The position numbers and the translations under genes were made by a program. The notes beneath the pieces were generated by a model, which saw only the letters and a list, made by a program, of their open reading frames with translations, was not told where the DNA came from and did not search any database. Shown here in pieces: positions 2,558 to 56,486 of a DNA stretch of 59,013 nucleotides (the first letter of the stretch is position 1; the number at the start of each line of letters is the position of its first letter). The stretch is taken from IMG/VR virus record IMGVR_UViG_3300030329_002180, positions 1 to 59,013 of that record; one strand, given 5' to 3'. The DNA comes from a virus. Taxonomy: Duplodnaviria > Caudoviricetes.

Positions 2558-2559
2558 AA

Positions 2560-2847
2560 TTACATATTGTCTAATTCTTCTTGTATTTTATCTATTTTCT
2601 TTTTTATTTCCGCACATTTTTCATATTCTTCTTTTTCTTCAAACATATTCATTTGAGTCATTAGTTTAGCTAATTCACCTACTAATTCAGTTTCTCTATC
2701 AATAGGTTCTTTTTTCTTAAACTTTTGCTTTTGTATATTGTTGAATATATCAGAGGTACTTGTCTCATACCACATAGATAAGTTATTTATATTCATTAAT
2801 TTACCAACTATCATATTGGCTAACTTGTTTAATTCTTCGTCTGTCAT
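2560..2847 (-). CDS. Small protein with C-terminal UVR (UvrB/UvrC) coiled-coil motif
   Basis: QMNMFEEKEEYEKCAEIKKKIDKI fits the UVR consensus m..a...EdyE.AA.lRd.i. Confidence 0.6.
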   Translation of the reverse strand: MTDEELNKLANMIVGKLMNINNLSMWYETSTSDIFNNIQKQKFKKKEPIDRETELVGELAKLMTQMNMFEEKEEYEKCAEIKKKIDKIQEELDNM

Positions 2848-2852
2848 AATAT

Positions 2853-13869: not shown

Positions 13870-14113
13870 TGATTACGTTATAGTATTAGATAGTAAAGAA
13901 GGTCCTAAAAAAATAGGAGGTTTAATATTAACTGAAGAATTAGATAGTGACAATAGGTATGTAAAGGCAGAAGTTGTATCTGTAGGTAATTTAGTAGAAT
14001 GTATAAAAGTTAAAGATATTATATATTACGATAAACACGCTGGACATGGTATATCTTGGAAAGATGTGCAATATAAAGTTATAAAAGGTAGAGATATTGT
14101 AATAATAGAATAA
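13856..14113 (+). CDS. groES: Co-chaperonin GroES (Cpn10)
   Basis: MKAINDYVIV, GGLIL mobile loop, AEVVSVG, VKDIIYYDKHAG; overlaps the end of groEL. Confidence 0.9.
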   Translation: MKAINDYVIVLDSKEGPKKIGGLILTEELDSDNRYVKAEVVSVGNLVECIKVKDIIYYDKHAGHGISWKDVQYKVIKGRDIVIIE

Positions 14114-14557: not shown

Positions 14558-14932
14558 ATGGCATTTAAAATGAAAAATCCTTTAGCTGAAAAAACAACAA
14601 GTAGTTTGAATTTTGGCGGTAGCGATGGGGAGCAATTAGCTCCTGGTGTTACTGTTATAAGAAAAAATTTAAGTAAAGGAATTATGGGTGAAGCTAACAA
14701 AGATGGTACTATTTTTATTTCTAAAAAAGTTGAACCCGGTTCTAGTCAGGAAACACAAATATTAACACATGAAATAAAACACATGGTTGATTTAAAAACA
14801 GGTAGATTAAGGTATGATGATTATAGTTTGACTTGGGATGGTCAAACTTATGAAAGAAATAAAGGTAAAATATATTTCGAAGGACGTTGGTTACCAGAAG
14901 GTTCGGCTGACTTCCCTTGGGAGAATCATTAA
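14558..14932 (+). CDS. Small zincin-like metallopeptidase
   Basis: ILTHEIKH (HExxH) preceded by G...DGTIFI, with a C-terminal PWE providing a possible third ligand. Confidence 0.65.
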   Translation: MAFKMKNPLAEKTTSSLNFGGSDGEQLAPGVTVIRKNLSKGIMGEANKDGTIFISKKVEPGSSQETQILTHEIKHMVDLKTGRLRYDDYSLTWDGQTYERNKGKIYFEGRWLPEGSADFPWENH

Positions 14933-17305: not shown

Positions 17306-17510
17306 AAAAATAACTATAGGTAAAGACTATAAAAACGACGCCATGCATTACGCGGTAGATCAAGAAGTTTACGGCGGGCATACTATATGTAATATAATAG
17401 AAGAGAAAGATAAATATTCTGTTTATATTAAAAAAGAAGGTAACGTTATGCCCTGGAAAGATTTTAACAAAAACATGGCTATATCTGTAGAATATAATTT
17501 AGAGTATTAA
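17289..17510 (+). CDS. Hypothetical protein
   Basis: IRKITIGKDYKNDAMHY...; coupled to both neighbours. Confidence 0.7.
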   Translation: MTKLIRKITIGKDYKNDAMHYAVDQEVYGGHTICNIIEEKDKYSVYIKKEGNVMPWKDFNKNMAISVEYNLEY

Positions 17511-18112
17511 TGGATAGTGTTTATAATTATATAATTAAACCAAAAAATTCCAGATATAACAATACTAAAAAAGTTGGTAAAAAAGATTTAATATTAAACA
17601 CAGAAATATCAAATCATCAATTTATAAGTAGAGAGGCTGTTGTTAAAAGTATACCAAAAGCGTTAGAAACAGATATAAAACCTGGAGATGAAGTTATTGT
17701 TCATCATAATGTTTTTAGAAGATGGCATGACATGCGTGGTGAAGAAAAAAATAGTAGAAGTTATTTTAATGAAGAAACTTATTTAGTAACAGACGAACAA
17801 ATCTTTCTTTATAAAAATAACAACAAATGGAAATCACCTAGTGGATACTGTTTTGTAAAACCAATAAAAGCAGTTGATTCTTTTAACGTTGATTCAGAAA
17901 GACCATTAATAGGCATTGTTAAGTATTCAGATGGCACTGTAGAGGAGGGTGATTTAATAGGTTTTAAACCTAGTTCTGAATTTGAATTTGTTATTGACGG
18001 GGAACGTTTATATAGGGTTTTATCACATTTTATTACAATTAAATATGAATATCAAGGAGACGAAGAAGAATATAATCCAAGCTGGACACAAAGCAGTAGA
18101 GGAATTAATTAA
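17510..18112 (+). CDS. Tandem GroES-like domain protein
   Basis: Unit 1 NYIIKP...EAVVKSIP...IKPGDEVIV; unit 2 YCFVKP...GIVKY...VEEGDLIGF...FVIDGERLYRV. Confidence 0.6.
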   Translation: MDSVYNYIIKPKNSRYNNTKKVGKKDLILNTEISNHQFISREAVVKSIPKALETDIKPGDEVIVHHNVFRRWHDMRGEEKNSRSYFNEETYLVTDEQIFLYKNNNKWKSPSGYCFVKPIKAVDSFNVDSERPLIGIVKYSDGTVEEGDLIGFKPSSEFEFVIDGERLYRVLSHFITIKYEYQGDEEEYNPSWTQSSRGIN

Positions 18113-23386: not shown

Positions 23387-24637
23387 ATGGAAGAAAACAA
23401 CGAAAGCATGTTAGAAGAAATCATGCAAGAGGTATCGACAGAAGAAACTGTTGATAAAACAGAAACAAAAACAGAAGAAAAAACAGAAAGCAAATTAGAA
23501 GAAAATACAAAAGACGAAGATACGACTAAAATAGATCTTAGTTCTTTTAAAGCTTCTAATGAGCCCGAAGTATTTAAAATAGATTTAAATAAACCATTAA
23601 ACCAAGAAGAAAATGAAACTAAAGAAGATAACGTTGACGACAGCGGAGTGGTTGCAGAGTCTGAAGACACCGAGTCCACACAAGAACAAAAAGAAGTACA
23701 ACCGGAAACAGAAACACAAGAAACTCCAATTTTAGAAGAAAAACCTAAAGTTGAAGATGTTGCGGTAGAAGAAAAACAACAAACAGTTACAGAGCAACCA
23801 GTTCAACAAGATGAACCTATAGGAGATTTAGATAAGTTAAAAGCTTTTATGAAAGAAACTGGTGGTAGCGTTGAAGACTACGTTAATTTGAATAGAGATT
23901 ATAGTAAACTAGATGACGTAACTGTTTTAAGAGAATATTATAAAGGAACAAAATCACATCTTAGTGCTGAAGAAATTGATTTTATGATGGAAGATCAATT
24001 TGCTTATGACGAAGAATATGAAGATGCGAAAGATGTTAAAAGAAAAAAATTAGCGTTAAAAGAGCAAGTTGCCAACGCTAGAGCCCAACTGGAAGGGTTA
24101 AAATCCAGATATTACGAAGAAATCAAAGCTGGATCGAAGCTCACGGGTGAGCAACAGAAAGCTATTGATTTTTTCAACAACTATAACGAGAACTCAAAAG
24201 TTCAAGCAGAGCAATCAGCAAAACAACAAGCTGTATTTCAAGAAGAAACAAATAAAGTGTTTCACCAAAAATTCGAAGGTTTCGAGTATAATGTTGGAGA
24301 TAAGATTTACAGATACAAAGTTAAAGATGCTAATGCTGTGAGAGAATCACAATTAAATATAGGTAATTTTATTGAGAAGTTTCTTGATAAAAATGGAAAT
24401 ATGTCTAAAACTGCTGATTATCACAAATCAATATTTACTGCTTCTAATCCAGATGTTATTGCTAAGCATTTCTATGAGCAAGGTAAAGCTGATGCTTTAA
24501 AACAAAGTATTGCTGAATCTAAAAATGTTAGTATGAAACCTAGGCAAGAACATGGAGAGGTTAAAGTACAGGGTGTTCAATTTAAACCTTTAAGTGGTAA
24601 TACAACTTCTGATTTCAAAGTTAAAATTAGAAAATAA
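23387..24637 (+). CDS. Capsid scaffolding protein
   Basis: Very acidic N-terminal half and helical C-terminal half; between portal and capsid genes. Confidence 0.7.
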   Translation: MEENNESMLEEIMQEVSTEETVDKTETKTEEKTESKLEENTKDEDTTKIDLSSFKASNEPEVFKIDLNKPLNQEENETKEDNVDDSGVVAESEDTESTQEQKEVQPETETQETPILEEKPKVEDVAVEEKQQTVTEQPVQQDEPIGDLDKLKAFMKETGGSVEDYVNLNRDYSKLDDVTVLREYYKGTKSHLSAEEIDFMMEDQFAYDEEYEDAKDVKRKKLALKEQVANARAQLEGLKSRYYEEIKAGSKLTGEQQKAIDFFNNYNENSKVQAEQSAKQQAVFQEETNKVFHQKFEGFEYNVGDKIYRYKVKDANAVRESQLNIGNFIEKFLDKNGNMSKTADYHKSIFTASNPDVIAKHFYEQGKADALKQSIAESKNVSMKPRQEHGEVKVQGVQFKPLSGNTTSDFKVKIRK

Positions 24638-40480: not shown

Positions 40481-42382
40481 ATGGCTGTAGGTAGAATAAC
40501 TAATAAAACAAAATCAGGAGATTCACCAGCTAAAATTTGGGGCGCTGTAATCGGGGCAGCTGTTGGTTTATATAATGGCTACAAAAGTAGAAAACAGCAA
40601 AAAAAGCAAATGAGAAGTTTACAAAGTCAAAGATCTGTAGATAATTCTAGACTTGAGAAAGGTAGAAAAGCTTATGAAAATATGAAGTTTACAAACCCTT
40701 ATGCTGGTTTTTCAAATCCTTATGCTGACACTCAAAACCCATATGCTGGTATGAGTAATCCTTTTTCTGGAATGCCAAACTCTTTTGCAGGTTTAAGTAA
40801 TCCTTATGAAAACGTTACTAATACTTATGCTGGTATGACTAATGCTTTTGATGGTATGACGAATGCTTATGATAACATGACTAATCCATTTTCTGGACAA
40901 AATGCTTTTGCTGGTATGACTAATGCGTTTGGTGGAGCTACAAACGCTTTTGCCGGTGCTACAAATGCTTTTGCTGGAGCACAAAATCCATATGCTCAAG
41001 TTACGAATACTTTTGCTGATCTTGATAATCCATATGCTTCGATGTCAAATTCTTATTCTGGTATAGAAAATCCTTACGCGGATGTTAGTAATTCTTTCGC
41101 TGAAACAAAAAATCCATATGCCGCTGTAAATAATCCATACGCATCGATGAAAAATCCTTATGATAATATGGAAAACACAGCTGAAGATTTAACTGTTGAT
41201 CAACAAGCGGCAGAATTTCAAACTAGACAAAACGCTCAATCTCAAGCTGACATATTAGGAAGTCTTAAAAGTAGTGCTGGTTCAACGGGTATTGCTTCTT
41301 TAGCCCAAGCTTTAGCTAATCAAAGTACAAATGCTAACGCTAAAGCCGCTGCTAATATTGCCCAACAAGAAAGTGCTAATCAAAAAGCTAAAGTAAATCA
41401 AGCTTCTAAAAACCAACAATTAGCTGCACAGGGACAAATGCAACTACAACAACTTCAAGGACAAGGACAGTTAAGATCACAAGAACTAAGAGGTCAAGGA
41501 GAGATGTTTGCTGAAAAACTTAGAGGTGAGGGAGAAATGAGAGCTGCGGAGTTAAAAGGTAAAGGTCAATGGTTAGCTGATGAGGCTGCTGCTAAAGGTG
41601 ATTTAGAAGTACAAAGATTACAGGGTCAAGGTCAATGGCTAGCTGACGAAGCTGCGGCTAAAGGAGGTATGAGAGCAGCTGAATTACAAGGTCAAGGTCA
41701 ATGGATGGCTGATCAAGCTAGAATGCAAGGTGAACAAGTTGCCGCAACACAGAGAATGCAAGGTGAGCAGTTTGCTGCAACGCAAAGAATGCAGGGTCAA
41801 CAGTATACCGATACTCAAATCATGCAAGGTCAACAATACGCGGATCAACTACAAGGACAAGCCTCTATGAATATTCAACAAATGCAAGCTCAAGGAGCAA
41901 TGAGCATACAACAACAACAAGCTCAAAGTGCTATGAATATACAACAGTTACAAGCAGCCGGTGGAATGCAAGCTCAACAATTGTATGGACAGGGACAATG
42001 GATGGCTGATGAAGCAGCCGCAAAAGGAGAGCAAGCTACAAATCAAATGATAGCCCAAGGACAGTTTATGACAAACGAGTTGATAGGTAAGGGTTATTTA
42101 TCAGCAAACGAGTTAAGAGGTAGAGGTGAAATAACTAGACAACAATATTTAGGCGCTGGAAACGAGTGGTTGCAAAACATGCAAGCAGCTAGAATTAGAG
42201 ATTTATATGGTATAGGTATGGCTAACTCTATGGCCACTAATCAAGCTATAACAGCTAATCAATCAGCACAAAATACATCAAGAGGTAATATGATAAGTGC
42301 GGTTGGTCAAGGTTTAGGTGCTTGGGCTGGTACTACTAAAGGTACCGATTGGTTAAATACCACCTTCGGGGTTAAGTGGTAA
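40481..42382 (+). CDS. Putative DNA ejection / pilot protein with two repeat arrays
   Basis: N-terminal IWGAVIGAAVGL glycine-zipper segment, 23 heptads N[PA][YF]xxxx and 23 Q-rich 11-mers. Confidence 0.7.
   Translation: MAVGRITNKTKSGDSPAKIWGAVIGAAVGLYNGYKSRKQQKKQMRSLQSQRSVDNSRLEKGRKAYENMKFTNPYAGFSNPYADTQNPYAGMSNPFSGMPNSFAGLSNPYENVTNTYAGMTNAFDGMTNAYDNMTNPFSGQNAFAGMTNAFGGATNAFAGATNAFAGAQNPYAQVTNTFADLDNPYASMSNSYSGIENPYADVSNSFAETKNPYAAVNNPYASMKNPYDNMENTAEDLTVDQQAAEFQTRQNAQSQADILGSLKSSAGSTGIASLAQALANQSTNANAKAAANIAQQESANQKAKVNQASKNQQLAAQGQMQLQQLQGQGQLRSQELRGQGEMFAEKLRGEGEMRAAELKGKGQWLADEAAAKGDLEVQRLQGQGQWLADEAAAKGGMRAAELQGQGQWMADQARMQGEQVAATQRMQGEQFAATQRMQGQQYTDTQIMQGQQYADQLQGQASMNIQQMQAQGAMSIQQQQAQSAMNIQQLQAAGGMQAQQLYGQGQWMADEAAAKGEQATNQMIAQGQFMTNELIGKGYLSANELRGRGEITRQQYLGAGNEWLQNMQAARIRDLYGIGMANSMATNQAITANQSAQNTSRGNMISAVGQGLGAWAGTTKGTDWLNTTFGVKW
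40694..41173 (+). repeat. Coding 21-bp (7-aa) tandem repeat, 23 units
   Basis: NPYAGFS NPYADTQ NPYAGMS ... NPYDNME; one unit is 6 aa. Confidence 0.9.
41429..42187 (+). repeat. Coding 33-bp (11-aa) tandem repeat, 23 units
   Basis: QGQMQLQQLQG ... KGQWLADEAAA ... AGNEWLQNMQA. Confidence 0.85.
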
Positions 42383-42397: not shown

Positions 42398-43807
42398 ATG
42401 GGATATAGTACAGATAATACATTAATAAATTTAGCTTATCAATTAAGACAAAGTGAATTAGCACAACCAGAGGTTAGTAATCCTTGGGAAATTGTCGAGA
42501 AAGATATTAAAAAATGGCAAAAAAACTCTCAAGAAAGAGCAGAAAAATTTATAGATAATTTACCAGAACAATTTAATTTACAAAAAATTGAACCAAATGG
42601 TAGAAAAGCTGTAGGTGCTTGGTACAAAAATATGAGAAGTAGATATACTGACGCTGCTAATAGTACGTCTTGGTTTTCTCCTGGTAGTGATGCTTATACA
42701 GAAGGTACAGCTACATTAAATAGTTTAGAAGATGAAATGAATACTGTTTCTGGTATATTAGATAACATAAAAGTTATGAGGACTAATGCTATAGAGAATA
42801 AAGATATGTTAGCTACAGGTGTTAGTGAGGATCAAAAAGCTTTAAACAACGCGTTGATATCAGGTGAGATATTTGACGATATGGAGATAAAAAATGGTGA
42901 GGTTTATTTTAAGGTAAATGGTAAGAAAATAGCAGGATCTGAATTTAAACCTGCTAGAGTACAAGAGAACATGGCAGAAGATACTTGGAATGGTATATTA
43001 GCTGCAACTGAAGAAAACAAGCAAAAAGGTTTTAAATTTAATAAAGAATTAAACAATCAAAATATATACAAAATGTTAGAATTAGGTAATAAATCTGGTG
43101 AGAGTTTTGATATGATGTTTAGCGTTAAAAACAAAACTAAAAATGGTATATCTTTTATAGATCAATATTTAAGTGGAAATCCAGTTGATAAATGGAATAC
43201 TGAAGAAAAAATAAAAAATGATTATAGAAATTTCTTTTTTGAAAATAAAAGGGATTTTGGTGGTTTTTTAATGGAAACATTAGAACATGTTGACAACAAT
43301 ACTGATTTAGATGAAAAAACTAGACAAGCTTTGTTAAAAGAAGAAGCCAATATAAGAAAAATAAATAATGATGCAAAAAAATTAGATCTTTACAATGCTC
43401 AATTAAAAAAGCAACAAGACTTAGCTGTAGTTAATCTAGGACAAGATAAAACTTTTAGATATGGAGATAAGATAATTACTAAAAACCCAGGTAAAGATGA
43501 TGATGGATATAGTATACTATTAGACAACGGAACGCAAGTGTTTGCCACTGATATTGATGATTTAATAGCACAAATTAATCTTCCTTTAGATAGTGAAGAA
43601 TACAATAAGATAATAGAAGCACAACATATAAGAAGATACAGTGTATTTAAAAAAGCTAACTCTGATCTTGACGATGATAGTATAGAAAATTTAATCGAAA
43701 CTAGTGGTGGTGATAGAAATTTCTGGAATCAATTTACAGATTGGTGGAAAAAACCTAAAGGAGGAGGTGAGTTTAACTTTAATTCAGAAAAAAATTTAAA
43801 CGAATAA
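42398..43807 (+). CDS. Putative internal virion / ejection protein
   Basis: Helical protein between the pilot-like and giant protein genes. Confidence 0.55.
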   Translation: MGYSTDNTLINLAYQLRQSELAQPEVSNPWEIVEKDIKKWQKNSQERAEKFIDNLPEQFNLQKIEPNGRKAVGAWYKNMRSRYTDAANSTSWFSPGSDAYTEGTATLNSLEDEMNTVSGILDNIKVMRTNAIENKDMLATGVSEDQKALNNALISGEIFDDMEIKNGEVYFKVNGKKIAGSEFKPARVQENMAEDTWNGILAATEENKQKGFKFNKELNNQNIYKMLELGNKSGESFDMMFSVKNKTKNGISFIDQYLSGNPVDKWNTEEKIKNDYRNFFFENKRDFGGFLMETLEHVDNNTDLDEKTRQALLKEEANIRKINNDAKKLDLYNAQLKKQQDLAVVNLGQDKTFRYGDKIITKNPGKDDDGYSILLDNGTQVFATDIDDLIAQINLPLDSEEYNKIIEAQHIRRYSVFKKANSDLDDDSIENLIETSGGDRNFWNQFTDWWKKPKGGGEFNFNSEKNLNE

Positions 43808-43817: not shown

Positions 43818-46800
43818 ATGAGAAGATTTAAATTATTTGGAAGAATATATAATATTCCTGAGGAAGGTGTTAAGCAATTTTTAGAAACATATCCTGATGC
43901 CGAGGAGTATTTTGGTGAATCTAGTGAAAAAGTTACTGAGGATGTAACTAAATTATCGGATGATGATGCTGTTGTTAGATTAAACTCACAATATGGTGAT
44001 CTTGGTTTTTCTTTTGAAACGGCTGGTCTTCTTTCAAATAAAGTAAAGGTTACAAATTTCGATGGTACAATAAGTGAAACTTTTGACTTTAATAATTGGA
44101 CAGACGCTGGTAGATCAAAAGTTGCGTCTGATTTAAATGATTGGATGAGTGCGAATGCTGCTCCTAATACAGATCCTAACTTTGCTCCTATATCTGGAGA
44201 ACAATTACATAAACAATCTACTTTGAACGGTGCTTTTAATATTGAAGAGAGCGCCGTTGTACATTTAAACAATTTATATAGAGATAAAGGTGTTTGGTTT
44301 GAGGAAATATCTCCAGGTAGTGACGAAGTAAGAGTTCATAAAGGTGGCAAACATTTAGATGTAAAACTACCTAATAATATATCTAATATAAACCAAGAGA
44401 ATGCTAGAGATTGGGATATTGTTGCTAGTAAGATAAGTAACTTTGCAACAGGTGTTAGTATTACACCTGTTTATGAGGGACAAATGGGTAAGTTTTCAGA
44501 ATTAATAGAGAGAAAACTAGATGAACCAGGCTTTTTAGAAAGCTTAGGTATAACAGATTGGGAATATGCTGTTAAAAGAGAAGTTAATCAAAACATAAGC
44601 AAAGAAGAAGCTAAGTACAATGTTATATTAAAAGCTTTAAAGTCGAAAGCTGGTACAGAGGGTATTTTTGGTTTTGGTTGGAATCCTAATGATGATTATA
44701 GCCAATTAAAAGAAAAAGAAATTGATAGATCTATTGAACAAGCTGTAAACAATAGATATTACGCTGCTAGAAATGCTAGATTAGTCGCCGAGTCTAATCA
44801 ATTAGCTAATTTTTTAGCAGAAAATATAGAAGAAGATGTTGATGGTAGAAAGTTTCAAGCAGCAACCATTGATGATATTCACGAGCTTTACAAACAAAAA
44901 TCAATAAAAGAGTTTTCAAAAGAAGGAAAAAAACTATTTAATCTAGTAGAAGAATGGAAAAAATTAAACCAACAACGTTTAAATGGTGTTGATGTTAAAA
45001 GAAGTGATATTCAAAAATTAGAATCACAAATAAGAACAGCTAGAAATAACTATACCAATTGGTATACAACAGCTAGTAGTTTTGTTGATAGAGATGGAAA
45101 TCCAATATCACCAGTTCAAGGTGAAAAACTAGTTGGTGGATACATGTTAACTGAAGAGGATAGAGACAACTCTAGACAAGATGTTAGTAAAAGATTACAG
45201 TTTAGCAATATAGATGAGTTGAGAGATGATATGTATGTTGATAAGTTTATTAGTGATAAAATGTATAACAAGATGGAAAAAATTGTTATAAATAATCACG
45301 AGGGTAGAAAGCTTTTAGAAAAAGCGGGTTACAGATCTTCTGGTACAACTGATTTAGGTTATATATACGAAGTTCCATTTGGATTTTTAGCAGAAAACTA
45401 TAAAGAAATAATAAAAGGAGATACAGCTTTACCAATGGAGGGTAAAAAGTTTAAATCAGATCCTGGTTATTTTGGTCTTTTTGAATTTGACAAACAACAG
45501 TCTAAACAAGGCGCTAAAGGAGATTATGGTGATATAGAAGAGTATACGGAGGGTAAAGATTTTTCACAAAGATTTAAACAATCATTAAAAACATACAAAT
45601 CAGAACGTAAAAAACTAATATCTGATTTAAACACTGTTAATGAGATGAGCTTGTTAAATATAGATCCCGCTAGTAAAATATCAGGAAAAGGCGCGGTTGT
45701 AGAAAATGTTGGTGATTTCTTTATGCACATGGGTGGTATTTTAGTAGAAAGTACTGGGAGAATATTTGATAGAGATTTTGAAATAGATGATAGAAGTAAA
45801 AGCGTTCAAGCTGAACTAGAAAAATTAAAGAATATACCTGATTACGAAATGACAGAAGCACAATTAGAAGCTTCTAAAAAAAATATGGCTTATGAGGTTG
45901 CGGAGGGAGTAACTGGTTTTGTACCTGCTATAGCGGAGTTTGCGGCTATAGAGTTTGCTACAGCTGGACTTGGTAGTCAATTCGCTTTAAGTAAGTTGGG
46001 TATGAGATTGTTAAAAACTGAAAAATCAATAAAAGCTTTTGAAAAAGCTTATGATGTAAAGCGTGGTACAAAAGAGTTTGATAAAGCTGTTAAAACTTTA
46101 GGATTAAGATCTTTAGATTCTACTAAATTAGGAAAAGTATTAATACCAACAGCTAAAGTTTTAAACGAAGAACTTAAAATGGGTATTGTAATGGGACCAG
46201 AAGATTACCATGTAGGTTCTGGTGCTGCTTTTTATGGAGTTGGACAGTTAATGCAAAGATTATTACCGAAAGCTGCTGGTAGTAGGTGGGAAGCTGTTAG
46301 AACGTTTATTAGAAACGGTAGTAGTGGTGCGATGGGTGTTAAAGCAGGAGAAGAATTACATGCTCTTATTGAAGACATGCGCGGTAATGAGTCTTATATG
46401 AAACATATAGAAGACGCGTATGGTGATATGAGTCAAGTCGGTAGAGATGCTTTAGTAGAATTTTTAGTGTTTTCTTTAGTTGGTTTTAAAGGAACTATAG
46501 ATAGTCACGGTGGTAAGTGGTTAGGATTTAGAAGCAACAGACAATTAGACACCTTGTTAACAGAATCACTAGTTAAGTCAAGAGAACTAAACACTGATAG
46601 ATTAAACATATTAAAAGGTAGAAAATTTGAAGATTTAAATCCCGGTGAGAAAAAGAAAGTAACAGATTTAGAATCAAGAATAGATAATTGGATTCAGGTT
46701 CAGAATGGTGTTATGAGAAGAATTAATATTATAAATAGAAATATTGATTTTAAAAGTAGTCCAGAGAAAGCAACAAAACAAATGAACGAAAGGTTCAATA

Positions 46801-49800
46801 CTATAATTGAAGAGATGTCTAAAATGAGAACATCTAATAAAGATGGTGAACCTATTAAATTTAAAGTTGTTAGATATAGAAAAGATGGTGATTTTAAAGA
46901 TAAAGATTCCGCAGCGGAGTTTGATGGTAAAAATACAATATGGGTAGACGCACAGAGAGCTGAATGGGGTAAAATACCACACGAGGTTAACCATGTATTT
47001 ATAAAGCAATGGTTTGGTACTGAAAAAGGAAAACTTGTAGCTGAAAAATTTAAATTAGAATTGATAGAGAATTTGAAACCTATAAAATTTAGAGGTTTTG
47101 CTAAGAAAAACGGCGAGTATATTGATAAAGATGGTAAAGTTATAGATAAAAGAACTGATTTCGAGGGAACACCCGCGCAAATAAAAGCTCAAAAAGAAGC
47201 TGCTAGAGTTTATAAAGAGTTTTCTATAGAAGATTATATATTGAATGAATATAGTAATCGTAAAGATTTTCATGATATAAAAGCTAATGAGTTTATAAGT
47301 TATACTATGGAGGCTTTAGCAGACCCAATGAATAGAGATAAGGTTCTTGGTGGTGGTATAATGACACGTATGCACCAATCATATAATCGTTTATTAGAAC
47401 GTGGTGGTGGAGGTAAAGCTAAACTTGGTGAAAATTTAAAAGGCTTAGATTTAGTTAGATTTATGTCAAATCTATCTATGGATTTAGCAGGTGGTAAAGT
47501 TACATCGAGACAATTAGAAAAGTTCAAAGAGCTACTAAGTGACCCCGTTTTAGATAATCATATTAACAAGGTTGATAAGATTGCTAAAATGAGAGAAACT
47601 GTAACTAAGAATCAGGAACCATTAAGCTCTAAAGTTAATGAGTTTAAACGACAAGAATTAATAGAAAGAAAAAATAAGCTAGAAACTACAAAGCCTAAAG
47701 ATTGGAAAGAAAGAGTAGAGAAAACTGTAAAAGAGATTTCAGAATTAAGGAAAACAGATCAATTACAAGAAGTAACAGAATCTAATAAAAAAGTATCGCT
47801 TAAAAACGACGCTTTATTAAAAGAATATAATAAAGTAAAATTAGATAAAAAAGAAACAAAAAAACTTAGTTTGGAATTAGCTAAACTAGAGGATAAAGCA
47901 AGAAGTATAGGTGAGGCTAGAAAAGAGGGTTATATAGAAGAAATTAGAAAATTAACACCACGTATAAACGAGATTAAAGAAGGTTTAAAAAAGTCAAACA
48001 AAATAAAGGAGGATATTCTACAAAACAATAAAGGTATTGTTAATAGATGGTTGTTTGGAGACCCAAAAACAAAAACACCAGGTGTTATTGATCCAGCTAA
48101 AAGTTCTCAAGCAGAATTAAAAGAAATAAAATCATCAGCAGATATTGAGGTTATGAATATAATTGATTCGTATAAACCTTCAGAAGGAGCTTTTGGTAAA
48201 TATTTAATTGGAGCTTTAAGGGGTAAAACCGGTAACCAACGTTTAGGTAATATATTGAAAAGAGCTGGTATTGATTTAGATGTCAAAATGAAAACAGTTA
48301 GTAGAGATGCTCCAGAATATAAAGAAAAAGAGGGTGAAGGTTATGACTTTGAAGCTCAAAAAGAAAAAAGAAAGAAAGAAGAAAAAGAGTTAAAAGAAGA
48401 AATAGCTGGAAAAAGAATTTTAAAAGAAGATTTTAAACTTAATGAAGAGCAGATAAGTAGAGTTGAAAGTAGACTTGAAGGTAGAGATTGGTATAAGGAA
48501 GATTTAATAACCGTAGATAACGTTGCTAAAGATATTATATCTGAAGTAATGGGTAATACTATTACTGAAAAAATAAATTGGATTACAAAAGGTGATAATT
48601 GGAAAGTAGCGTTAGATGCTGTTAGTAAACAATCGTTTTCTATAGCCAGATTAGATTTACCACATAGAGTTGGATCTAAAGGATCTGCACAAATGTCTAC
48701 AAAGTTAAAAGGAACCGTGGTTAGAGATATTATGGAACCTACAGGCGAAACCGTAAGTTTAAAAATAGAAGGTTCAACACAAAATTTACCTATACAAAGA
48801 AAAAAGACATTTACTAGAGAAAGTTTCCTTAGAGACGTACTACATGTAACTTTTGATGCTAAAGGAAAACTTGTTAGCGTTAATGCTGATTCTGCTTTAG
48901 GTAAAAAACGTAAAAAAGCATTTAACAATCTTCAATATGAAATGGGTAGAGGTTTTTCTATTCAATTAAGTAAAGATGTTATTAAAAGAGGAGAAGCTAG
49001 TGGAGATATTGTTATTAAAACAACTTTACAAGATTTAATAAATAAGGTGCAAGACGGAAAATCTCCAAATTTAGCGTCTAAATATAACGAACTAATTAAA
49101 GAAGCTCAAGAAAGAAAACCTAGTTTGTTTAGAGTTAAAAGTATATTAGGCGAAGATAGTAAAGAATATAAAAAATTAGAAAAAGATATTTTACTACAAA
49201 TATCTGATAATAAAAAGCTAGCTACAAGTATATATGAGGCTTATGATTTAACACCAGCTAAACTAGAAAAGATAGTTGTAGAGCAATATAAACGTTTTAG
49301 AAATAAGGAATTAAGAGAAGAATTAAGAAAAGCGGGGTTTGAATTAAACAAAGATGTAGCGGGTGGTAAAGATGGTTATATTAATAAACCAGAAACATTC
49401 GTTAAATTAGCTAATTATTTAAATAAAAACCTTAAATTACCTAGTACATTTTTTTATTCAATGTTGCTAGATAGTTATGGTGTTAAAAAATGGCAACCAT
49501 ATAATTCATGGGCTGGTAGAAAAATACTTAAAGAACAAGATATTTCTTGGGAAACAATAAACGAAATACATGGACAATTTTTAGGTTTATCAGGTTTTGG
49601 AACTAAAACAACAGGTGATAAAGCTGGAATTATATTGTCTAACGCTTTGAAAGATAAAATTAGAAGAACTAATAATAAAGACTTAACACCAATAGAAAAA
49701 GCTGAAGAAATAGTTAATTGGATGGAAGGTTATCTTAACGATTATGGAACCTCTATAGTTGATGCATATAAAAATAACAAGAAAGTAAGAAAAGATTTAG

Positions 49801-52800
49801 CTGGGTCTTTACATGATTACGTTTATAAAGGTGGTGATAAAAAGTTGATAAACGAAAGGTTTAATGATGTAGCTAATTTTTTAGCACAACAAACATATAT
49901 ACCTTACGGAATATGGAGAGCTACAAATCCAGTTACATCATTTACAACAATGAAAGGTAAAGTGTCCGACCAACATATCGTTCAAGTTTTAAATCAATCT
50001 GTAAACACTGTTAAAAATATTGCTAAATATAAAAGCAAAGATAAATTTATAAAAGATTTCGTATTAACTGATAAGTATTCTAATAGATCTTTTACTACTG
50101 AAAAAAATCAAAAATTAAGCGATAAATCTGGTAGAACAACTTACGAAGGCCCAATGGCTAAAGGTGTAAAACAAGAATTCCAATTAATAGTTGACCCAAA
50201 ACAATTATCTGAAAACTTTATTATTGATGTTAAAGGTAAAAAAGTAGAAATAAAAACTTGGGGTGATAGTTTGATAGAGCAATTATCTGGCAAATCTTTA
50301 GATAAACTAGGACACTTGAGTAGTAAGGATTTAAATCATTACATAAAAGAGGTTCAAGCTATTTTAGAAGGTCAAAAAACTAAAAAGAAAAAAAGAGGTA
50401 TTACTGTTTGGGATTTTGATGATACTATAGCTAGAACAAAATCAAACGTGTTATTTACAGATCCTAAAGGCAAAAAAGGTAAACTTAATGCTGAGGAGTT
50501 TGCTAAGCATGGAAAAACGTTATTAGATCAAGGTTTTAAATTTGATTTTTCTGAATTTAATAAAGTTATTGATGGTAAGAAAGGTCCGTTTTTTGACAAA
50601 GCACTAAAAAGAAATGAAAAATTTGGTAATAAAGATGTTTTTATATTAACAGCTAGACCTGGTGTTTCTGCAAATGCTATACACGAGTTTTTGAAAGGTA
50701 TTGGTTTAGAAATACCTTTAGAAAATATTAAAGGTTTAGGTAATAGCACCGCTGAAGCTAAAGCTAAATGGATGGTTGGTAAAGTTGCGGAAGGTTACAA
50801 TGATTTTTATTTTGCTGACGATGCTATAAAAAATACTAACGCGGTTAAAAATGTACTTAATCAATTCGATGTTAAATCCAAAGTTCAACTTGCTCAACAA
50901 AGCTTATCATCAAAAAGAAGTGAGAAATTTAACAAAATACTAGAAGATGTTTCTGGAATGGAAGCTAAAAAACGTTTTTCAGATGTTAAAGCTAAAATAA
51001 GAGGCTCTGCGAAAGATAAGTTTGAATTTTTTATACCATCATCTGCTGAGGACTTTGTAGGATTAATGTATAAGTTTATGGGTAAAGGTGTTAAAGGAGA
51101 AAAACATCAAGCTTGGTTTAAAAGAAATTTATTAGATCCATTTGAAAAAGGTATTTTTGATTTAAATAATGCTAAACAAAAAATAGCTACAGAATATGAT
51201 GTTTTAAAATCTCAAAATAAAGAAGCTATAAATAAATTAAAAGAAAGAGTAAAGGATAATAAGGATTTTACTTACGAACAAGCTTTACGTGTTCATTTAT
51301 TTGAGAAGGCTGGTTACGACACGCCTGGTCTATCTAAAACAGACAAAGGTAAATTGTTAGAAGCAGTAAACTCTAATCCTGATTTACTAGCATTGTCACA
51401 CACACTAAGTAAAATATCAAGAAAGAAAGAGGGTTATATAGAGCCGAAAAAAGATTGGTTAACAGGTGATATACAAACTGATTTAATGTCATTGACATCT
51501 AGAACGGCAAGAGCTAAGTATTTGAATAAATGGATAGAAAATAAAAATGAAATATTTTCACCAGAAAATTTAAACAAAATTGAAGCTATTCACGGTACTA
51601 AATATAGAGAAGCTTTAGAAGATATTTTATATAGAATGGAAACGGGTGTTAATAGAAATATTGGTAAAGATAGATTTAATTATAGGTTTTCAGAAGCAAT
51701 GTCTAATTCTGTTGGTGCTATAATGTTTGCTAACATTAGATCAGCAACTTTACAGATGTTATCTACAGTGAACTTTGTTAATTGGGGTCATAATAATATA
51801 TTTAATGTTGCTAAAACTTTTGCTAATCCAAAACAATATTGGAAAGATGTAACTATGATATTTAATTCTAATTGGGCTAAACAGAGAAGATCAGGTTTAA
51901 AAACAGATGTTAACCACGTTGAGTTGGCGGAAGCTGCTTCTTCTGGTTCAAATAAGTTTAGATCCGGTATGAAATGGTTGTTACAAAAAGGTTTTATGCC
52001 AACTCAAATAGCTGATAGTTTTGCAATAGCAACAGGTGGTGCTTCATATTATAGAAATACTGTTAAAAAATATATGAAAGAAGGTTTGACAAAGAAAAAT
52101 GCGGAGAAGAAAGCTTGGTTAGAATTCCAACACATAGCAGAAAGAACACAGCAGTCTGCTAGACCAGATTTAATATCACAACAACAAGCTTCTCCACTTG
52201 GGAGATTTATATTAGCTTTTGCTAACACACCAATGCAGTATAACAGGATTATAAAGAAGTCTTTTACAGATCTTAAAAATGGAAGAGGAGATGCTAAAGC
52301 TCATATATCTAAAATTATATATTATGGAGCTATGCAAAACTTTATATTCTCATCATTACAAGCAGGGTTGTTCACATTATTGTTTGATGATACTGATGAG
52401 AATGCTATAAAACAAAAAGAAGTTAGAATTGCTAATTCTATGTTAGACACTGTTTTAAGAGGATCTGGTTTTGCTGGAGCTGGTGTATCATCTTTAAAAA
52501 ACATGTTACTAGAATTCCACAAGCAAGAAGGCAAAGGATATAACGCAGATCACATGAGAACTGTTTTACAAGGATTAAATTTCTCACCACCTCTAGGGTC
52601 TAGAGTTAGAAAAGTGTATTCTGGATTAACAAATTATAAATACAACAAACAGCTTATAGAAGCAAGAGGATTTAATATTGATAATCCAGCTTTAAATATA
52701 ACCGGTAATGTTGTTGAGGGATTGACAAACGTACCTTTAGCTAGATTAGTTAACAAGACTAATAATGTTGTTGAAGGTTTAAGCGGTGAGCATGAAACGT

Positions 52801-53069
52801 GGCAATCGATAGCGCTTTTAATGGGTTGGAATAGATGGGATTTAGGAGTGGAAAACGAAGAAATGAAAAAATTAAGAGAACAAATAAAGATACAAAATAG
52901 ATTAAGAGGAAAAGGTAAAGCCTCTGTAACTAGAATGATTAACAAAGCAAAAAAAGAAACTAGAGTTGGTTATAGACCATATTTATATAACAACCAAATA
53001 CGTTGGGTTAGGTTAAAAGATAAAGATATTTTTGAAAGAAATTACCCAGAAGCAGAGCTTATAAAGTAA
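43818..53069 (+). CDS. Giant multidomain internal virion protein (zincin peptidase, sigma-region-2-like, HAD phosphatase segments)
   Basis: IPHEVNH...ANEF; NNKGIVNR...IIDSYKPSEGAFGKYL; VWDFDDTIA...ILTARP...FADDAIKN. Confidence 0.7.
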   Translation: MRRFKLFGRIYNIPEEGVKQFLETYPDAEEYFGESSEKVTEDVTKLSDDDAVVRLNSQYGDLGFSFETAGLLSNKVKVTNFDGTISETFDFNNWTDAGRSKVASDLNDWMSANAAPNTDPNFAPISGEQLHKQSTLNGAFNIEESAVVHLNNLYRDKGVWFEEISPGSDEVRVHKGGKHLDVKLPNNISNINQENARDWDIVASKISNFATGVSITPVYEGQMGKFSELIERKLDEPGFLESLGITDWEYAVKREVNQNISKEEAKYNVILKALKSKAGTEGIFGFGWNPNDDYSQLKEKEIDRSIEQAVNNRYYAARNARLVAESNQLANFLAENIEEDVDGRKFQAATIDDIHELYKQKSIKEFSKEGKKLFNLVEEWKKLNQQRLNGVDVKRSDIQKLESQIRTARNNYTNWYTTASSFVDRDGNPISPVQGEKLVGGYMLTEEDRDNSRQDVSKRLQFSNIDELRDDMYVDKFISDKMYNKMEKIVINNHEGRKLLEKAGYRSSGTTDLGYIYEVPFGFLAENYKEIIKGDTALPMEGKKFKSDPGYFGLFEFDKQQSKQGAKGDYGDIEEYTEGKDFSQRFKQSLKTYKSERKKLISDLNTVNEMSLLNIDPASKISGKGAVVENVGDFFMHMGGILVESTGRIFDRDFEIDDRSKSVQAELEKLKNIPDYEMTEAQLEASKKNMAYEVAEGVTGFVPAIAEFAAIEFATAGLGSQFALSKLGMRLLKTEKSIKAFEKAYDVKRGTKEFDKAVKTLGLRSLDSTKLGKVLIPTAKVLNEELKMGIVMGPEDYHVGSGAAFYGVGQLMQRLLPKAAGSRWEAVRTFIRNGSSGAMGVKAGEELHALIEDMRGNESYMKHIEDAYGDMSQVGRDALVEFLVFSLVGFKGTIDSHGGKWLGFRSNRQLDTLLTESLVKSRELNTDRLNILKGRKFEDLNPGEKKKVTDLESRIDNWIQVQNGVMRRINIINRNIDFKSSPEKATKQMNERFNTIIEEMSKMRTSNKDGEPIKFKVVRYRKDGDFKDKDSAAEFDGKNTIWVDAQRAEWGKIPHEVNHVFIKQWFGTEKGKLVAEKFKLELIENLKPIKFRGFAKKNGEYIDKDGKVIDKRTDFEGTPAQIKAQKEAARVYKEFSIEDYILNEYSNRKDFHDIKANEFISYTMEALADPMNRDKVLGGGIMTRMHQSYNRLLERGGGGKAKLGENLKGLDLVRFMSNLSMDLAGGKVTSRQLEKFKELLSDPVLDNHINKVDKIAKMRETVTKNQEPLSSKVNEFKRQELIERKNKLETTKPKDWKERVEKTVKEISELRKTDQLQEVTESNKKVSLKNDALLKEYNKVKLDKKETKKLSLELAKLEDKARSIGEARKEGYIEEIRKLTPRINEIKEGLKKSNKIKEDILQNNKGIVNRWLFGDPKTKTPGVIDPAKSSQAELKEIKSSADIEVMNIIDSYKPSEGAFGKYLIGALRGKTGNQRLGNILKRAGIDLDVKMKTVSRDAPEYKEKEGEGYDFEAQKEKRKKEEKELKEEIAGKRILKEDFKLNEEQISRVESRLEGRDWYKEDLITVDNVAKDIISEVMGNTITEKINWITKGDNWKVALDAVSKQSFSIARLDLPHRVGSKGSAQMSTKLKGTVVRDIMEPTGETVSLKIEGSTQNLPIQRKKTFTRESFLRDVLHVTFDAKGKLVSVNADSALGKKRKKAFNNLQYEMGRGFSIQLSKDVIKRGEASGDIVIKTTLQDLINKVQDGKSPNLASKYNELIKEAQERKPSLFRVKSILGEDSKEYKKLEKDILLQISDNKKLATSIYEAYDLTPAKLEKIVVEQYKRFRNKELREELRKAGFELNKDVAGGKDGYINKPETFVKLANYLNKNLKLPSTFFYSMLLDSYGVKKWQPYNSWAGRKILKEQDISWETINEIHGQFLGLSGFGTKTTGDKAGIILSNALKDKIRRTNNKDLTPIEKAEEIVNWMEGYLNDYGTSIVDAYKNNKKVRKDLAGSLHDYVYKGGDKKLINERFNDVANFLAQQTYIPYGIWRATNPVTSFTTMKGKVSDQHIVQVLNQSVNTVKNIAKYKSKDKFIKDFVLTDKYSNRSFTTEKNQKLSDKSGRTTYEGPMAKGVKQEFQLIVDPKQLSENFIIDVKGKKVEIKTWGDSLIEQLSGKSLDKLGHLSSKDLNHYIKEVQAILEGQKTKKKKRGITVWDFDDTIARTKSNVLFTDPKGKKGKLNAEEFAKHGKTLLDQGFKFDFSEFNKVIDGKKGPFFDKALKRNEKFGNKDVFILTARPGVSANAIHEFLKGIGLEIPLENIKGLGNSTAEAKAKWMVGKVAEGYNDFYFADDAIKNTNAVKNVLNQFDVKSKVQLAQQSLSSKRSEKFNKILEDVSGMEAKKRFSDVKAKIRGSAKDKFEFFIPSSAEDFVGLMYKFMGKGVKGEKHQAWFKRNLLDPFEKGIFDLNNAKQKIATEYDVLKSQNKEAINKLKERVKDNKDFTYEQALRVHLFEKAGYDTPGLSKTDKGKLLEAVNSNPDLLALSHTLSKISRKKEGYIEPKKDWLTGDIQTDLMSLTSRTARAKYLNKWIENKNEIFSPENLNKIEAIHGTKYREALEDILYRMETGVNRNIGKDRFNYRFSEAMSNSVGAIMFANIRSATLQMLSTVNFVNWGHNNIFNVAKTFANPKQYWKDVTMIFNSNWAKQRRSGLKTDVNHVELAEAASSGSNKFRSGMKWLLQKGFMPTQIADSFAIATGGASYYRNTVKKYMKEGLTKKNAEKKAWLEFQHIAERTQQSARPDLISQQQASPLGRFILAFANTPMQYNRIIKKSFTDLKNGRGDAKAHISKIIYYGAMQNFIFSSLQAGLFTLLFDDTDENAIKQKEVRIANSMLDTVLRGSGFAGAGVSSLKNMLLEFHKQEGKGYNADHMRTVLQGLNFSPPLGSRVRKVYSGLTNYKYNKQLIEARGFNIDNPALNITGNVVEGLTNVPLARLVNKTNNVVEGLSGEHETWQSIALLMGWNRWDLGVENEEMKKLREQIKIQNRLRGKGKASVTRMINKAKKETRVGYRPYLYNNQIRWVRLKDKDIFERNYPEAELIK

Positions 53070-53377: not shown

Positions 53378-53728
53378 ATGAAAAATATTGATCCTAAAAT
53401 AGCATATCTATTTGTAATTGTGTTTTGGTTAATAGTTACAACAGCTTTTGGCCAAATAGAAGTAAAACAATTTAACGCTAGTTGGAATAGCGCTAATGAT
53501 GTTGGTTGGGTTCAAAGTCTTGAAGATTGTAAAACTATAAGTTATACTGATGTCGCTAAAGACAAAGAATCTCAAAAAGAATATAAAATAGCAGTAGTAC
53601 CTACTATTATTATATTTAAAGATGGAGAAGAAGTTGCTAGATTTCAAGCTGATTTAAGTTTTAAAATGCAAGCAACAAGAGAAGAAGTACAGGAAGAAAT
53701 AAATAACCAATTAATGAGTGATTTCTAA
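53378..53728 (+). CDS. Exported thioredoxin-fold protein lacking CxxC
   Basis: Signal peptide ending AFG-Q; FNASWNSAN replaces FxAxWCxPC; YKIAVVPTIIIFKDGEEVARF. Confidence 0.7.
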   Translation: MKNIDPKIAYLFVIVFWLIVTTAFGQIEVKQFNASWNSANDVGWVQSLEDCKTISYTDVAKDKESQKEYKIAVVPTIIIFKDGEEVARFQADLSFKMQATREEVQEEINNQLMSDF

Positions 53729-54096
53729 TGTATACTTATAAAATAAAATTAGATAGAGTTATTGATGGTGATACCATTGATGCTCATATTGATTTAGGAT
53801 TTGATGTGTCTATTAAAAAAAGAATTAGATTTGTTGGTATTAATACTCCAGAATCTAGAACTAGAGATTTAGAAGAAAAAGCAAGAGGTTTAGCAGCTAA
53901 AGATAGATTAAAGAATTTATTAGAAGGTGCTAATATGATACAATTAAAATCTCACGGCGTTGGAAAATATGGAAGATGTTTAGGTGAGTTACACATAGAC
54001 GTTGTTGACGGTCAAGATAAAATGACCTTAGAAAATGTAAATGAATTATTAATAAAAGAGGGCCATGCCGTAGAATATCATGGAGGTAAAAGATAA
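53728..54096 (+). CDS. Staphylococcal nuclease-like (thermonuclease) protein
   Basis: RVIDGDTID, RIRFVGINTPE, KYGRCLG, NELLIKEGHA. Confidence 0.85.
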   Translation: MYTYKIKLDRVIDGDTIDAHIDLGFDVSIKKRIRFVGINTPESRTRDLEEKARGLAAKDRLKNLLEGANMIQLKSHGVGKYGRCLGELHIDVVDGQDKMTLENVNELLIKEGHAVEYHGGKR

Positions 54097-54186: not shown

Positions 54187-54297
54187 ATGAAACAATTATT
54201 AATTATATTATTATTATTATGTTTATCAAGTTGCTTGACAACAAAACAAACTTGTGAAAAAGAAACTAAAAAATGTTGTACAAAAAAAATAAAATGA
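54187..54297 (+). CDS. Small lipoprotein, 36 aa (MKQLLIILLLLCLSSCLTTKQTCEKETKKCCTKKIK)
   Basis: Translated by hand; lipobox LSS-C; stop overlaps the next ATG (ATGA). Confidence 0.6.
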   Translation: MKQLLIILLLLCLSSCLTTKQTCEKETKKCCTKKIK

Positions 54298-56486
54298 AAA
54301 AAATAATACTATTACTATTACTACCTATAATAACTTTTGCGCAAAAAGAAGTTGTTATACATATACAAACTGATTCTTGGCCAGGAGAAACTAAATGGAC
54401 TTTGTATAAAGACGCTTATCAAGGCGATACTATAGCTTACGTTCCTTATTATCATTATAGTGCGCCAAATACAATGCACAGAGACACTGTTTATATGGCT
54501 GATAGTATTACTAATATATCATTTGTTATATATGATGGATATGGTGATGGTATTGTGAATGGTAGTTATTACGTTACTATATGTGGTGATACTGTGGTAG
54601 ATTATCCTGTATCTACATTTACAACAGGGTTAATACACAATAGAATGGTTCCTCAATGCATGCCTAATCCTCCTCCAGGTGTACCTGTTAAAATTGTTAT
54701 TAATTTAGATCAATATCAAGGCGAAACATCTTGGGATATAAAAGATACAAACGGTGTAACCTATGCTACGGGTGGTGGATATAATGTTCAACCTGATTAT
54801 GCTACAGTAATAACAAACGCTACTATCCCTAAGGGAGATTTGATATTTAATATATATGATAGCTACGGAGATGGTTTAAACGGAGCTTTATGGCAGGGAC
54901 AAGATGGTTCTTATTACGTTATTCAATGTAACGATACTTTAATATATGGTACTGATCCAGCTTTTGGATATGACACTTCACATGTATTTGTATCTGATTC
55001 TTGTCCTCCTATACTTGGTTGTACAGATGATGATTATGTAGAGTGGAATCCTTTTGCAACAGTAGATGATGGAAGTTGTCAAACACTAAAAATATTTGGT
55101 TGCTTAGATTCTACAATGTATAATTACGATCCAGGTGCCAATACAATGGAATTAATTGACACATGTACTTTTAAATTAATACTACATGATTTGATGGGTA
55201 ATGGTTGGGTTGGTTCTCATTTAAAACTAATACATCCAGATACATCATATCAATTTACACATTCAGGCGGGTTTGATGATATATATTACGTAGGATTAAC
55301 AGCTCCAGATCCAATAACATTTAGATTTCATATATCATCACAAGCTAGTTTAACCACTATAGAATGTGGATTTACTTTAATTAATCCAGAAGGTGATACT
55401 ATGATAAGTATTCAACCTCCGTTTATACAACCGTTGTTTTCTTATAATATGATTACTAATTGTGGTAATACTTGTGAAGAAAAAGTATTTGGGTGTATGG
55501 ATATATTAGCAATTAATTACGATAGTTTAGCAAACACAGATGACAGCACTTGTTATTATGGTCCTGGTTGTACTAACTCTTCTTATTTAGAATATTACAC
55601 ACAAGGTTATGTAGCTGACTATGACGACGGTAGTTGTATAACGCTAGCCGTATGGGGATGTATGGATTCTACAGCGTTTAATTATGATACATTAGCTAAT
55701 ATAGATAATGGTGGATGTGTCCCTGTTATATTAGGTTGTATGAATGAATTAGCTTTTAATTACAATCCTAATGCAAACACACCGGATACTTGCGTACCTT
55801 TAATATATGGATGTACGGATCCTACAATGTATAATTTCTGTGATACTTGTAACACGGATGACGGTAGTTGTGAGCCTTATGTTTTTGGATGTACTGATTC
55901 TACTATGTTTAACTTTAATCCATTAGCAAATGCAGATAACAACTCTTGTATTCCTTATATTTACGGTTGCACTGATCCTAGTATGCTTAATTACAACCCA
56001 CAAGCCAATACAGAAGATTTTAGTTGTATTGCTTATATTTATGGTTGTATGGATAGTACTGCTCTTAACTATGATTCAACAGCTAATACTGATAACGGTT
56101 CGTGTATCACTGTGGTTGAAGGATGTATGGACCCATCAGCTTACAACTATTCTGAGCTTGCTAATGTTAATGATAGCAGTTCTTGCTTATATAATGCTGG
56201 TTGTATCACTGGCCCAGGTGTTCCGTATTGGTTAAACGATCCTTGCTACGCTTGGGTATTATCAGTAGATGATTACTGTTGTGAAAATGAGTGGGATACA
56301 ATATGTCAAGCAACTTATAATCATTGTTTTAATGGGTGGGTCGGGCCATTATTAACAAGACAAATGGAAAGGAAAATAATAGCAATAACAGATTTACTAG
56401 GAAGACCAACAAAAGAAATAAAAAATCAACTTTTATTTTACATATATAATGATGGTACTGTTGAAAGAAAATTAATAAAAGATTAA
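54294..56486 (+). CDS. Secreted Cys/Asp-rich repeat protein with T9SS-like C-terminal sorting domain; start revised to MKKIILL
   Basis: Signal peptide ending TFA-Q; about 11 GC[TM]D....NY...AN.DDGSC repeats; ITDLLGR...FYIYNDGTVERKLI end. Confidence 0.75.
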   Translation: MKKIILLLLLPIITFAQKEVVIHIQTDSWPGETKWTLYKDAYQGDTIAYVPYYHYSAPNTMHRDTVYMADSITNISFVIYDGYGDGIVNGSYYVTICGDTVVDYPVSTFTTGLIHNRMVPQCMPNPPPGVPVKIVINLDQYQGETSWDIKDTNGVTYATGGGYNVQPDYATVITNATIPKGDLIFNIYDSYGDGLNGALWQGQDGSYYVIQCNDTLIYGTDPAFGYDTSHVFVSDSCPPILGCTDDDYVEWNPFATVDDGSCQTLKIFGCLDSTMYNYDPGANTMELIDTCTFKLILHDLMGNGWVGSHLKLIHPDTSYQFTHSGGFDDIYYVGLTAPDPITFRFHISSQASLTTIECGFTLINPEGDTMISIQPPFIQPLFSYNMITNCGNTCEEKVFGCMDILAINYDSLANTDDSTCYYGPGCTNSSYLEYYTQGYVADYDDGSCITLAVWGCMDSTAFNYDTLANIDNGGCVPVILGCMNELAFNYNPNANTPDTCVPLIYGCTDPTMYNFCDTCNTDDGSCEPYVFGCTDSTMFNFNPLANADNNSCIPYIYGCTDPSMLNYNPQANTEDFSCIAYIYGCMDSTALNYDSTANTDNGSCITVVEGCMDPSAYNYSELANVNDSSSCLYNAGCITGPGVPYWLNDPCYAWVLSVDDYCCENEWDTICQATYNHCFNGWVGPLLTRQMERKIIAITDLLGRPTKEIKNQLLFYIYNDGTVERKLIKD

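Follow-up and report, generated by a model that had tools for sequence, protein, structure and literature searches.

A clade-specific seam word at the module junctions of a giant phage protein is a candidate proteolytic processing site

The DNA stretch analyzed here (the window) is the whole of an IMG/VR virus record, IMGVR_UViG_3300030329_002180, 59,013 bases long with an estimated completeness of 99%. It contains a giant open reading frame (ORF) of 3083 amino acids, in which one short peptide word recurs at the seams between modules. The word is hydrophobic-[SA]-S-K in the clade of this protein (the query) and [QK]-F-S-K in most of its family. We consider it probable that these seam words are cut by some protease, either a zincin-like metallopeptidase built into the same chain or another one. 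Our preferred reading, held tentatively and with a little less than even confidence, goes further: the giant ORF would be a polyvalent virion protein, serving as cargo or in ejection, whose modules are released through seam-word cleavage by the built-in zincin.

The course that we propose is as follows. The chain would comprise, in order, an N-terminal part ending in the zincin-like metallopeptidase, a helical middle, a module of ~415 residues, a HAD phosphatase, and a helical C-terminal module of 717 residues. The seam word would serve as the proteolytic processing site, and the modules would be freed as individual proteins, either inside the capsid or once injected. Most likely the word would be read by the built-in zincin, working on its own chain or on neighboring copies. 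The phage itself appears to be a marine podophage of Flavobacteriia type whose tail module is crassvirus-like.

The strict pattern L[SA]SK matches four times in the giant ORF, starting at residues 1269 (LSSK), 1752 (LASK), 2167 (LSSK), and 2363 (LSSK). An earlier sequence-only reading of the same DNA had placed these sites at nucleotides 47622, 49071, 50316, and 50904, and an HEVNH motif at 46980; all five were recovered in this ORF. Composition alone predicts 0.25 matches, and the fraction of shuffles reaching four was 0.0004 (n = 5000) in a test that is post hoc. Because other 4-mers recur equally often in the protein (KGKL four times, SKIS and ELIE three times each) and the test is post hoc, the count in the query alone carries little weight. 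Elsewhere in the window, the strict pattern occurs once in the 51 other ORFs (14,831 residues). The Ser and Leu codons differ among the four sites, so the repeat is constrained at the peptide level rather than at the DNA level, which rules out a DNA-level repeat or a recombination joint.

All four sites stand at transitions between conserved blocks in an alignment of five sequences. Motif 1 lies in a conservation trough beside an insertion specific to the query, motif 2 closes a block of 66-79% identity, motif 3 comes immediately ahead of the HAD block, and motif 4 ends it. In AlphaFold models, the confidence (predicted local distance difference test, pLDDT) of the 10-residue blocks is 61-68 at motif 1, 47 at motif 2, 35-46 at motif 3, and 67 at motif 4, where it follows blocks of 41-44. 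The motifs occupy, in other words, stretches of low or middling confidence that separate better-predicted domains. Both the conservation blocks and the models agree with the placement given in the sequence-only reading: motif 1 comes after the zincin-like domain, motif 2 after the middle region with its conserved block, and motifs 3 and 4 directly flank HAD.

Conservation in homologs, which that reading had put forward as a check, is found as well. The clade consists of the query and four relatives that are 47-50% identical to it over the full length, three from the protein collection (P0003-P0005) and one encoded as a giant ORF on a viral contig (L010, identical to L003). In these five members, x[SA]SK is kept in 5/5 at site 2167 and in 5/5 at site 2363. 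L[SA]SK is kept in 4/5 at site 1752, where the remaining member has LSSP, and [LV]SSK in 3/5 at site 1269. The residues flanking the [SA]SK core vary among the members. A fragment of a more distant relative (P0124) has IASK and LSSK after the zincin domain, and another sequence (P0123) has SSK there. Other clades carry a word of their own at the same seams. Close relatives of the middle region number only 10 in a library of 1.8 billion representatives, plus one viral contig, and the HAD and C-terminal modules were not found in any named phage.

The family is much wider than this clade, with at least 520 IMG/VR contig stretches encoding a relative. Among the 120 matches listed, 119 share with the query only residues ~2180-3020, which cover the HAD and C-terminal modules. 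The seam that follows HAD reads K-[VI]-[QK]-F-S-K in most members; of 116 aligned sequences, 73 have F, 94 have S, and 64 have K in the corresponding columns. When 4-mers with at least three copies per protein were counted without bias, QFSK ranked first (15 of 119 proteins); it reaches four to five copies per protein in one subfamily. FSK occurs 303 times, against 97 expected. A permissive pattern, [FLMIV][SA]{1,2}K, was unusable at 17 matches per protein.

The words at different seams of one chain match each other, and they change in step from clade to clade. Some 4-mer of the post-HAD seam has a further copy in its own chain in 124 of 186 proteins; in 42 it recurs two or more times, and in 15 three or more times. 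Random windows taken as a control have a mean of 0.29 extra copies. A 3-mer is shared between this seam and the 50 residues before HAD in 103 of 182 proteins, versus 7.8% in control windows, and between this seam and the 120 residues after the zincin domain in 87 of 174, versus 17.9%. Pairs of matching words include QFSK/QFSK, SKSI/SKSI, RSANPS/RSVDPS, and, for the query's own clade, [VM]SSK/MSSK. K[VA]-SKSI was found at three seams in each of two relatives (L029 and P0037), and R-S-x-[ND]-P-S at four places in another (L032), including the positions directly before and after HAD. The sharing within a protein is 0.67-1.00 in the main classes, versus 0.12-0.28 across classes; the proteins compared are mutually related, so the shuffled-window controls overstate significance, and all these figures are effect sizes rather than probabilities, a point to be held against our reading. 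Because positions that are not homologous change together by clade, one common reader of the word is indicated.

It is very unlikely that the repeat is a functionless product of chance and shared ancestry. Such an origin would agree with other 4-mers recurring as often within the query and with family counts that are not independent of each other. However, the same word stands at non-homologous positions and changes together in at least five distinct motif classes, for which ancestry alone is insufficient, and the codons differ among the four sites of the query.

Proteins that have the C-terminal module and are shorter than the giants number 1292 at E ≤ 1e-10. The N-termini of 21 of them were examined; these look like fragments, because many begin inside HAD or sit on short contigs, and no clear evidence for natural split genes was seen among the 21. 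One shorter protein of 1003 residues (P0185; largest source contig 28,008 bases) contains only the HAD and C-terminal modules. It starts with M-M-F-S-K-A, 26 residues before the HAD motif, and this start coincides with the position of the pre-HAD seam word.

Taken as sequence features, unrelated modules, a seam word, a bracketed enzyme domain, a protease-like domain in the chain, and clade-specific matching words have the appearance of a polyprotein layout. From it we infer that the word is cut, and likewise by which protease and when. Within the word, conservation is highest at Ser, and S-K is the pair seen most often.

The candidate protease is found in the same chain. HEVNH occupies residues 1055-1059 (46980-46994), and E1158 (47289-47291), ~100 residues downstream of HExxH, may be the third ligand. 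Across 82 sequences, conservation reaches 90% or more at H1055, E1056, H1059, and E1158, and the family alignment has a conserved block, '...I-x-I-N-K...V-x-x-H-E-x-x-H'. HEVNH belongs to this family-wide HExxH...E signature, which is predicted to be of the gluzincin type. Among the full-length giants from viral contigs, HExxH is kept in 72 of 76, the exceptions being L010 (QExxH), L023 and L034 (HDxxH), and L062 (EExxH). In the AlphaFold model of residues 930-1800 (mean pLDDT 66.1), three strands are followed by the HExxH helix (model residues 123-137, bearing HEVNH) and then by the E1158 helix (model residues 227-239).

Several observations weigh against cutting by the built-in zincin. First, the first-His column of the local alignment has H in 75 sequences and Q in five, and the five, which have QE[IVF]GH, comprise one fragment and the four full-length proteins closest to the query; they still keep the seam motif. 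Second, the three HDxxH and EExxH giants mentioned above are further lineage members that deviate. Third, the best match of the domain profile against PDB, an M48-family peptidase aligned through the HExxH block, is borderline (E 0.02), and no significant match to a zincin fold was obtained, as Foldseek against PDB gave none at E ≤ 0.001 and the wide VIA search barely tested the zincin part because matches to the helical domain at residues 1317-1485 took up its whole list. The sequence-only reading had assigned the cutting to the internal peptidase. The family-wide HExxH...E and the conserved seam words speak for this assignment, but it is plausible rather than proven because the QExxH relatives keep the motif.

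These relatives make a different protease conceivable as the reader of the same cleavage sites, with two candidates: a separate 124-residue HExxH protein in the query clade, or a host protease acting after injection. The small ORF is a second candidate metallopeptidase, rare and clade-specific by sequence. It retains HExxH in 8/8 homologs, and a copy that is 54% identical and has HEVKH is present in the genome of the closest relative, which accords with a seam word being kept beside a built-in QExxH. However, it was found in only one of five family genomes searched (the other four being 46-86% complete) and has only seven homologs in the protein collection, so it cannot explain the family-wide pattern. 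Its Pfam matches are below threshold. Its likeness to the built-in zincin is not significant (hhalign against the zincin profile, probability 1%). A host protease, for its part, would leave unexplained why the words change by phage clade. We consider a reader outside the chain rather unlikely.

Alternatively, the words may not be cut at all, but be a linear motif bound by a common partner, in capsid packaging, by the phage chaperonin, or for ordered unfolding in ejection, or else a structural hinge. The in-step change would be explained equally well by any common reader, cutting or not, and the phage encodes GroEL and GroES homologs. The phage N4 virion RNA polymerase has an MPTase domain and is packaged uncut, according to the text available of PMC5512222. 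The comparison with AlphaFold boundaries, another check put forward by the sequence-only reading, came out mixed in this respect: confidence falls between the domains as expected, but motifs 1 and 4 are modeled within or at the start of helices rather than in clear loops (mean pLDDT of the models 66-67). The N4 case and these helices add to the points against cutting. On the other hand, a word of 3-5 residues that flanks an enzyme domain and stands at several seams of unrelated modules is arranged as polyprotein cleavage sites are, and the protease-like domain is nearly always in the same chain. Uncut words are thus unlikely in our view, if still a serious alternative.

Two further routes to cleavage were considered. 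Sites of a general prohead protease are unlikely, since the window's major capsid, portal, and scaffold-like proteins contain none of the seam-word patterns searched, and no prohead protease family was detected by Pfam and PHROGs in 65 ORFs, a search that distant families may escape. Protease-free self-cleavage at the X-Ser bond by an N-to-O acyl shift has parallels in Nup98-type and pyruvoyl-enzyme precursors, and Ser is the most conserved residue at the post-HAD seam (94/116). The acyl shift, however, needs a dedicated fold right before the site, and the modules that precede the sites here (zincin, conserved block, poorly conserved module, and HAD) are mutually unrelated; this route is extremely unlikely.

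If cleavage by the built-in zincin is followed further, the seam word could be a private code that co-evolves with this zincin clade by clade, and the products could include the HAD phosphatase and a sigma-region-2-like factor able to redirect host RNA polymerase before phage gene expression. We regard this extension as doubtful. The middle region had been called sigma-like in the sequence-only reading. In the VIA search, residues 1317-1485 gave Z 7.8 to sigma-A domain 2 (120 residues aligned, root-mean-square deviation 4.5) and 6.6-7.5 to other sigma chains, so weak fold matches stand behind that name, but they tie with coiled-coil hairpins, lie below the tool's reliable level for helical bundles, and are joined by no Pfam, PDB-profile, or hhalign match to sigma. 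The phage's own sigma factor was compared with the giant by hhalign and showed no likeness.

The HAD domain is the bracketed enzyme. Its motifs DFDDT (residues 2199-2203), T2278, K2315, and D2334-D2335 show no variation in alignments of 29 and of 45 sequences. Profile and fold matches are weak but consistent: PHROG 415 at E 1e-4, Pfam HAD at E 0.046 (14.6 bits versus a cut-off of 27), and, by Foldseek, class C acid phosphatase e(P4) at a probability of 0.96 but E 0.15. The C-terminal module is all-helical in the model of residues 2150-3083 (mean pLDDT 66.9) and has no fold match; in a protein atlas, its nearest clusters carry LPD39 (28% of members) and LPD38, which are leads only. Searches of Pfam with the whole giant and seven segments gave nothing above threshold, those of PDB sequences with the giant and the clade profile gave nothing relevant, and Foldseek of both models (residues 930-1800 and 2150-3083) against PDB gave no match at E ≤ 0.001. 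The features are listed in Table 1.

Table 1. Features of the giant protein and two other ORFs of the window.
Feature	Residues	Nucleotides	Strand	Basis or remark
Giant ORF, 3083 residues, zero cysteine		43818..53069	+	Translation; gene order
Zincin-like domain	~1010-1262	46845..47603	+	Family conservation, model, profile match
Junction motif 1, LSSK	1269-1272	47622..47633	+	After zincin-like domain; clade alignment, model
Helical domain	1317-1485	47766..48272	+	pLDDT 84-95; weak sigma-region-2-like fold matches
Highly conserved block	1561-1745	48498..49052	+	66-79% clade identity in 30-residue windows; ends just before motif 2
Junction motif 2, LASK	1752-1755	49071..49082	+	Clade alignment; block pLDDT 47
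Poorly conserved module, ~415 residues	1756-2166	49083..50315	+	Clade conservation
Junction motif 3, LSSK	2167-2170	50316..50327	+	32 residues ahead of HAD motif I
HAD-type phosphatase domain (predicted)	2194-2362	50397..50903	+	Invariant motifs; weak profile and fold matches
Junction motif 4, LSSK	2363-2366	50904..50915	+	Aligned with the [QK]FSK word of most family members
C-terminal all-helical module, 717 residues		50916..53066	+	Most conserved part of family
ORF of 124 residues with HEIKH		14558..14932	+	Weak Pfam eCIS_core and M90 matches, E 0.015-0.04, below threshold
Muzzle-like protein, 2593 residues		28767-36548		crAss_MUZ_C-like end, 25.9 bits versus cut-off 27; strong PHROG 14478 match

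The G+C content of the window is ~30%, and the coding strand switches near 8 kb. Its rightward arm codes for the GroEL and GroES homologs, large terminase, portal, capsid protein, several 'virion structural' PHROGs, and the muzzle-like protein of Table 1. Comparison of the capsid protein places the phage closest, among named phages, to Flavobacterium Elemovirus, Cellulophaga phages, and Maribacter phage Panino (41-46% identity). The giant ORF sits five genes downstream of the muzzle-like tail gene, whose product is predicted to be a crassvirus-type muzzle inside a 59-kb non-crass podophage. In crAss001, cargo proteins are encoded at the matching position downstream of the muzzle, as described in the available text of PMC10172136.

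Cysteine is also absent from the two ORFs directly upstream of the giant (633 residues, 40481-42382; 469 residues, 42398-43807), from the portal (20945-23359), and from many relatives, namely 54 of the 76 full-length giants on viral contigs and 85 of the 119 found by protein search. Its absence in the giant, the portal, the upstream ORFs, and the family members fits with proteins that are extruded unfolded.

Other genes of the window were noted along the way. Between the portal and capsid genes, a 416-residue ORF (23387-24637) has a very acidic, Glu/Thr-rich first third and no detected protease domain; it is probably the scaffold. GroEL (520 residues) and a Cpn10 GroES are encoded at 12307-14113 and 17510-18112, a second ORF matching the 'co-chaperonin GroES' PHROG, and Elemovirus encodes the same chaperonin gene set. 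The leftward arm (133-891, 1762-2133, and 2853-3461, all on the minus strand) encodes a sigma-70-type factor, a pyrimidine-dimer DNA glycosylase, and a GP88-domain protein. Directly 3′ of the giant gene (53378-54096) are a thioredoxin-like ORF, below threshold, and a staphylococcal-nuclease-like ORF. A 737-residue ORF (54273-56486) without a Pfam or PHROG match contains 37 cysteines (5%) and may encode a cysteine-rich fiber or receptor-binding protein.

Self-cutting of giant polyvalent proteins was proposed in 2017, and the literature texts searched give no cut site for it. A defined word that brackets an enzyme domain, present on hundreds of marine viral contigs, allows exact and cheap tests, and it supplies a rule by which giant proteins can be divided into their functional units. 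Should word and protease indeed co-evolve, they would make a simple natural system of orthogonal protease/site pairs. If the word is indeed a private cleavage code, a double-stranded DNA phage would be using an RNA-virus-like polyprotein strategy for injected cargo.

Among known kinds, the 'polyvalent proteins' of phages and plasmids that bear a zincin-like MPTase come closest. Iyer, Burroughs, Anand, de Souza, and Aravind (2017) proposed that MPTase domains process polyvalent proteins and cited phage P1 DdrB as a processed one, according to the available text (PMC5512222). The likeness to the proteins described in that text lies in a giant multi-domain phage chain, an embedded HExxH, and enzyme modules that are likely delivered with DNA. 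As in polyvalent proteins, the query joins zincin-like, HAD, and conserved C-terminal modules separated by blocks of differing conservation. In contrast, the query seams bear a defined word that varies by clade, and no Pfam LPD or MPTase model matches the query. In the part of PMC5512222 available, no cleavage-site word was found, 'cleavage site' occurring once, in a reference title. Nor was a description of seam words in such giant phage proteins found in literature covered by titles and abstracts, with subscription journals outside coverage.

The giant may also be likened to the cargo and ejection proteins of crassviruses (crAss001 gp45-gp50; Bayfield et al. 2023), by gene position and not by sequence; the strings proteoly-, cleav-, protease, and peptidase do not appear in the available text of that paper (PMC10172136). 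Unlike crassviruses, the query phage is 59 kb, and its capsid is nearest to those of Elemovirus, Cellulophaga, and Maribacter podophages. Flavobacterium phage elemoE gp18 (NC_055854.1; L002, 30676-41323) is likewise a giant structural protein at the same genome position, and its central HExxH stands in a context common to the query family ('IHINLEKANRRTVAHEIFHAIL'), with HEIFH within 'IHIN...VAHExxH'. It differs in having no BLAST-level likeness to the query, no detected HAD or C-terminal module, and no 4-mer in more than four copies.

The prohead proteases T4 gp21 and phiKZ-like gp175 offer a last comparison, as a 3-residue consensus word marks many of their cut sites in internal head proteins. 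In the query phage, by contrast, the word hardly occurs outside one protein, and the chain to be cut would itself include the candidate protease.

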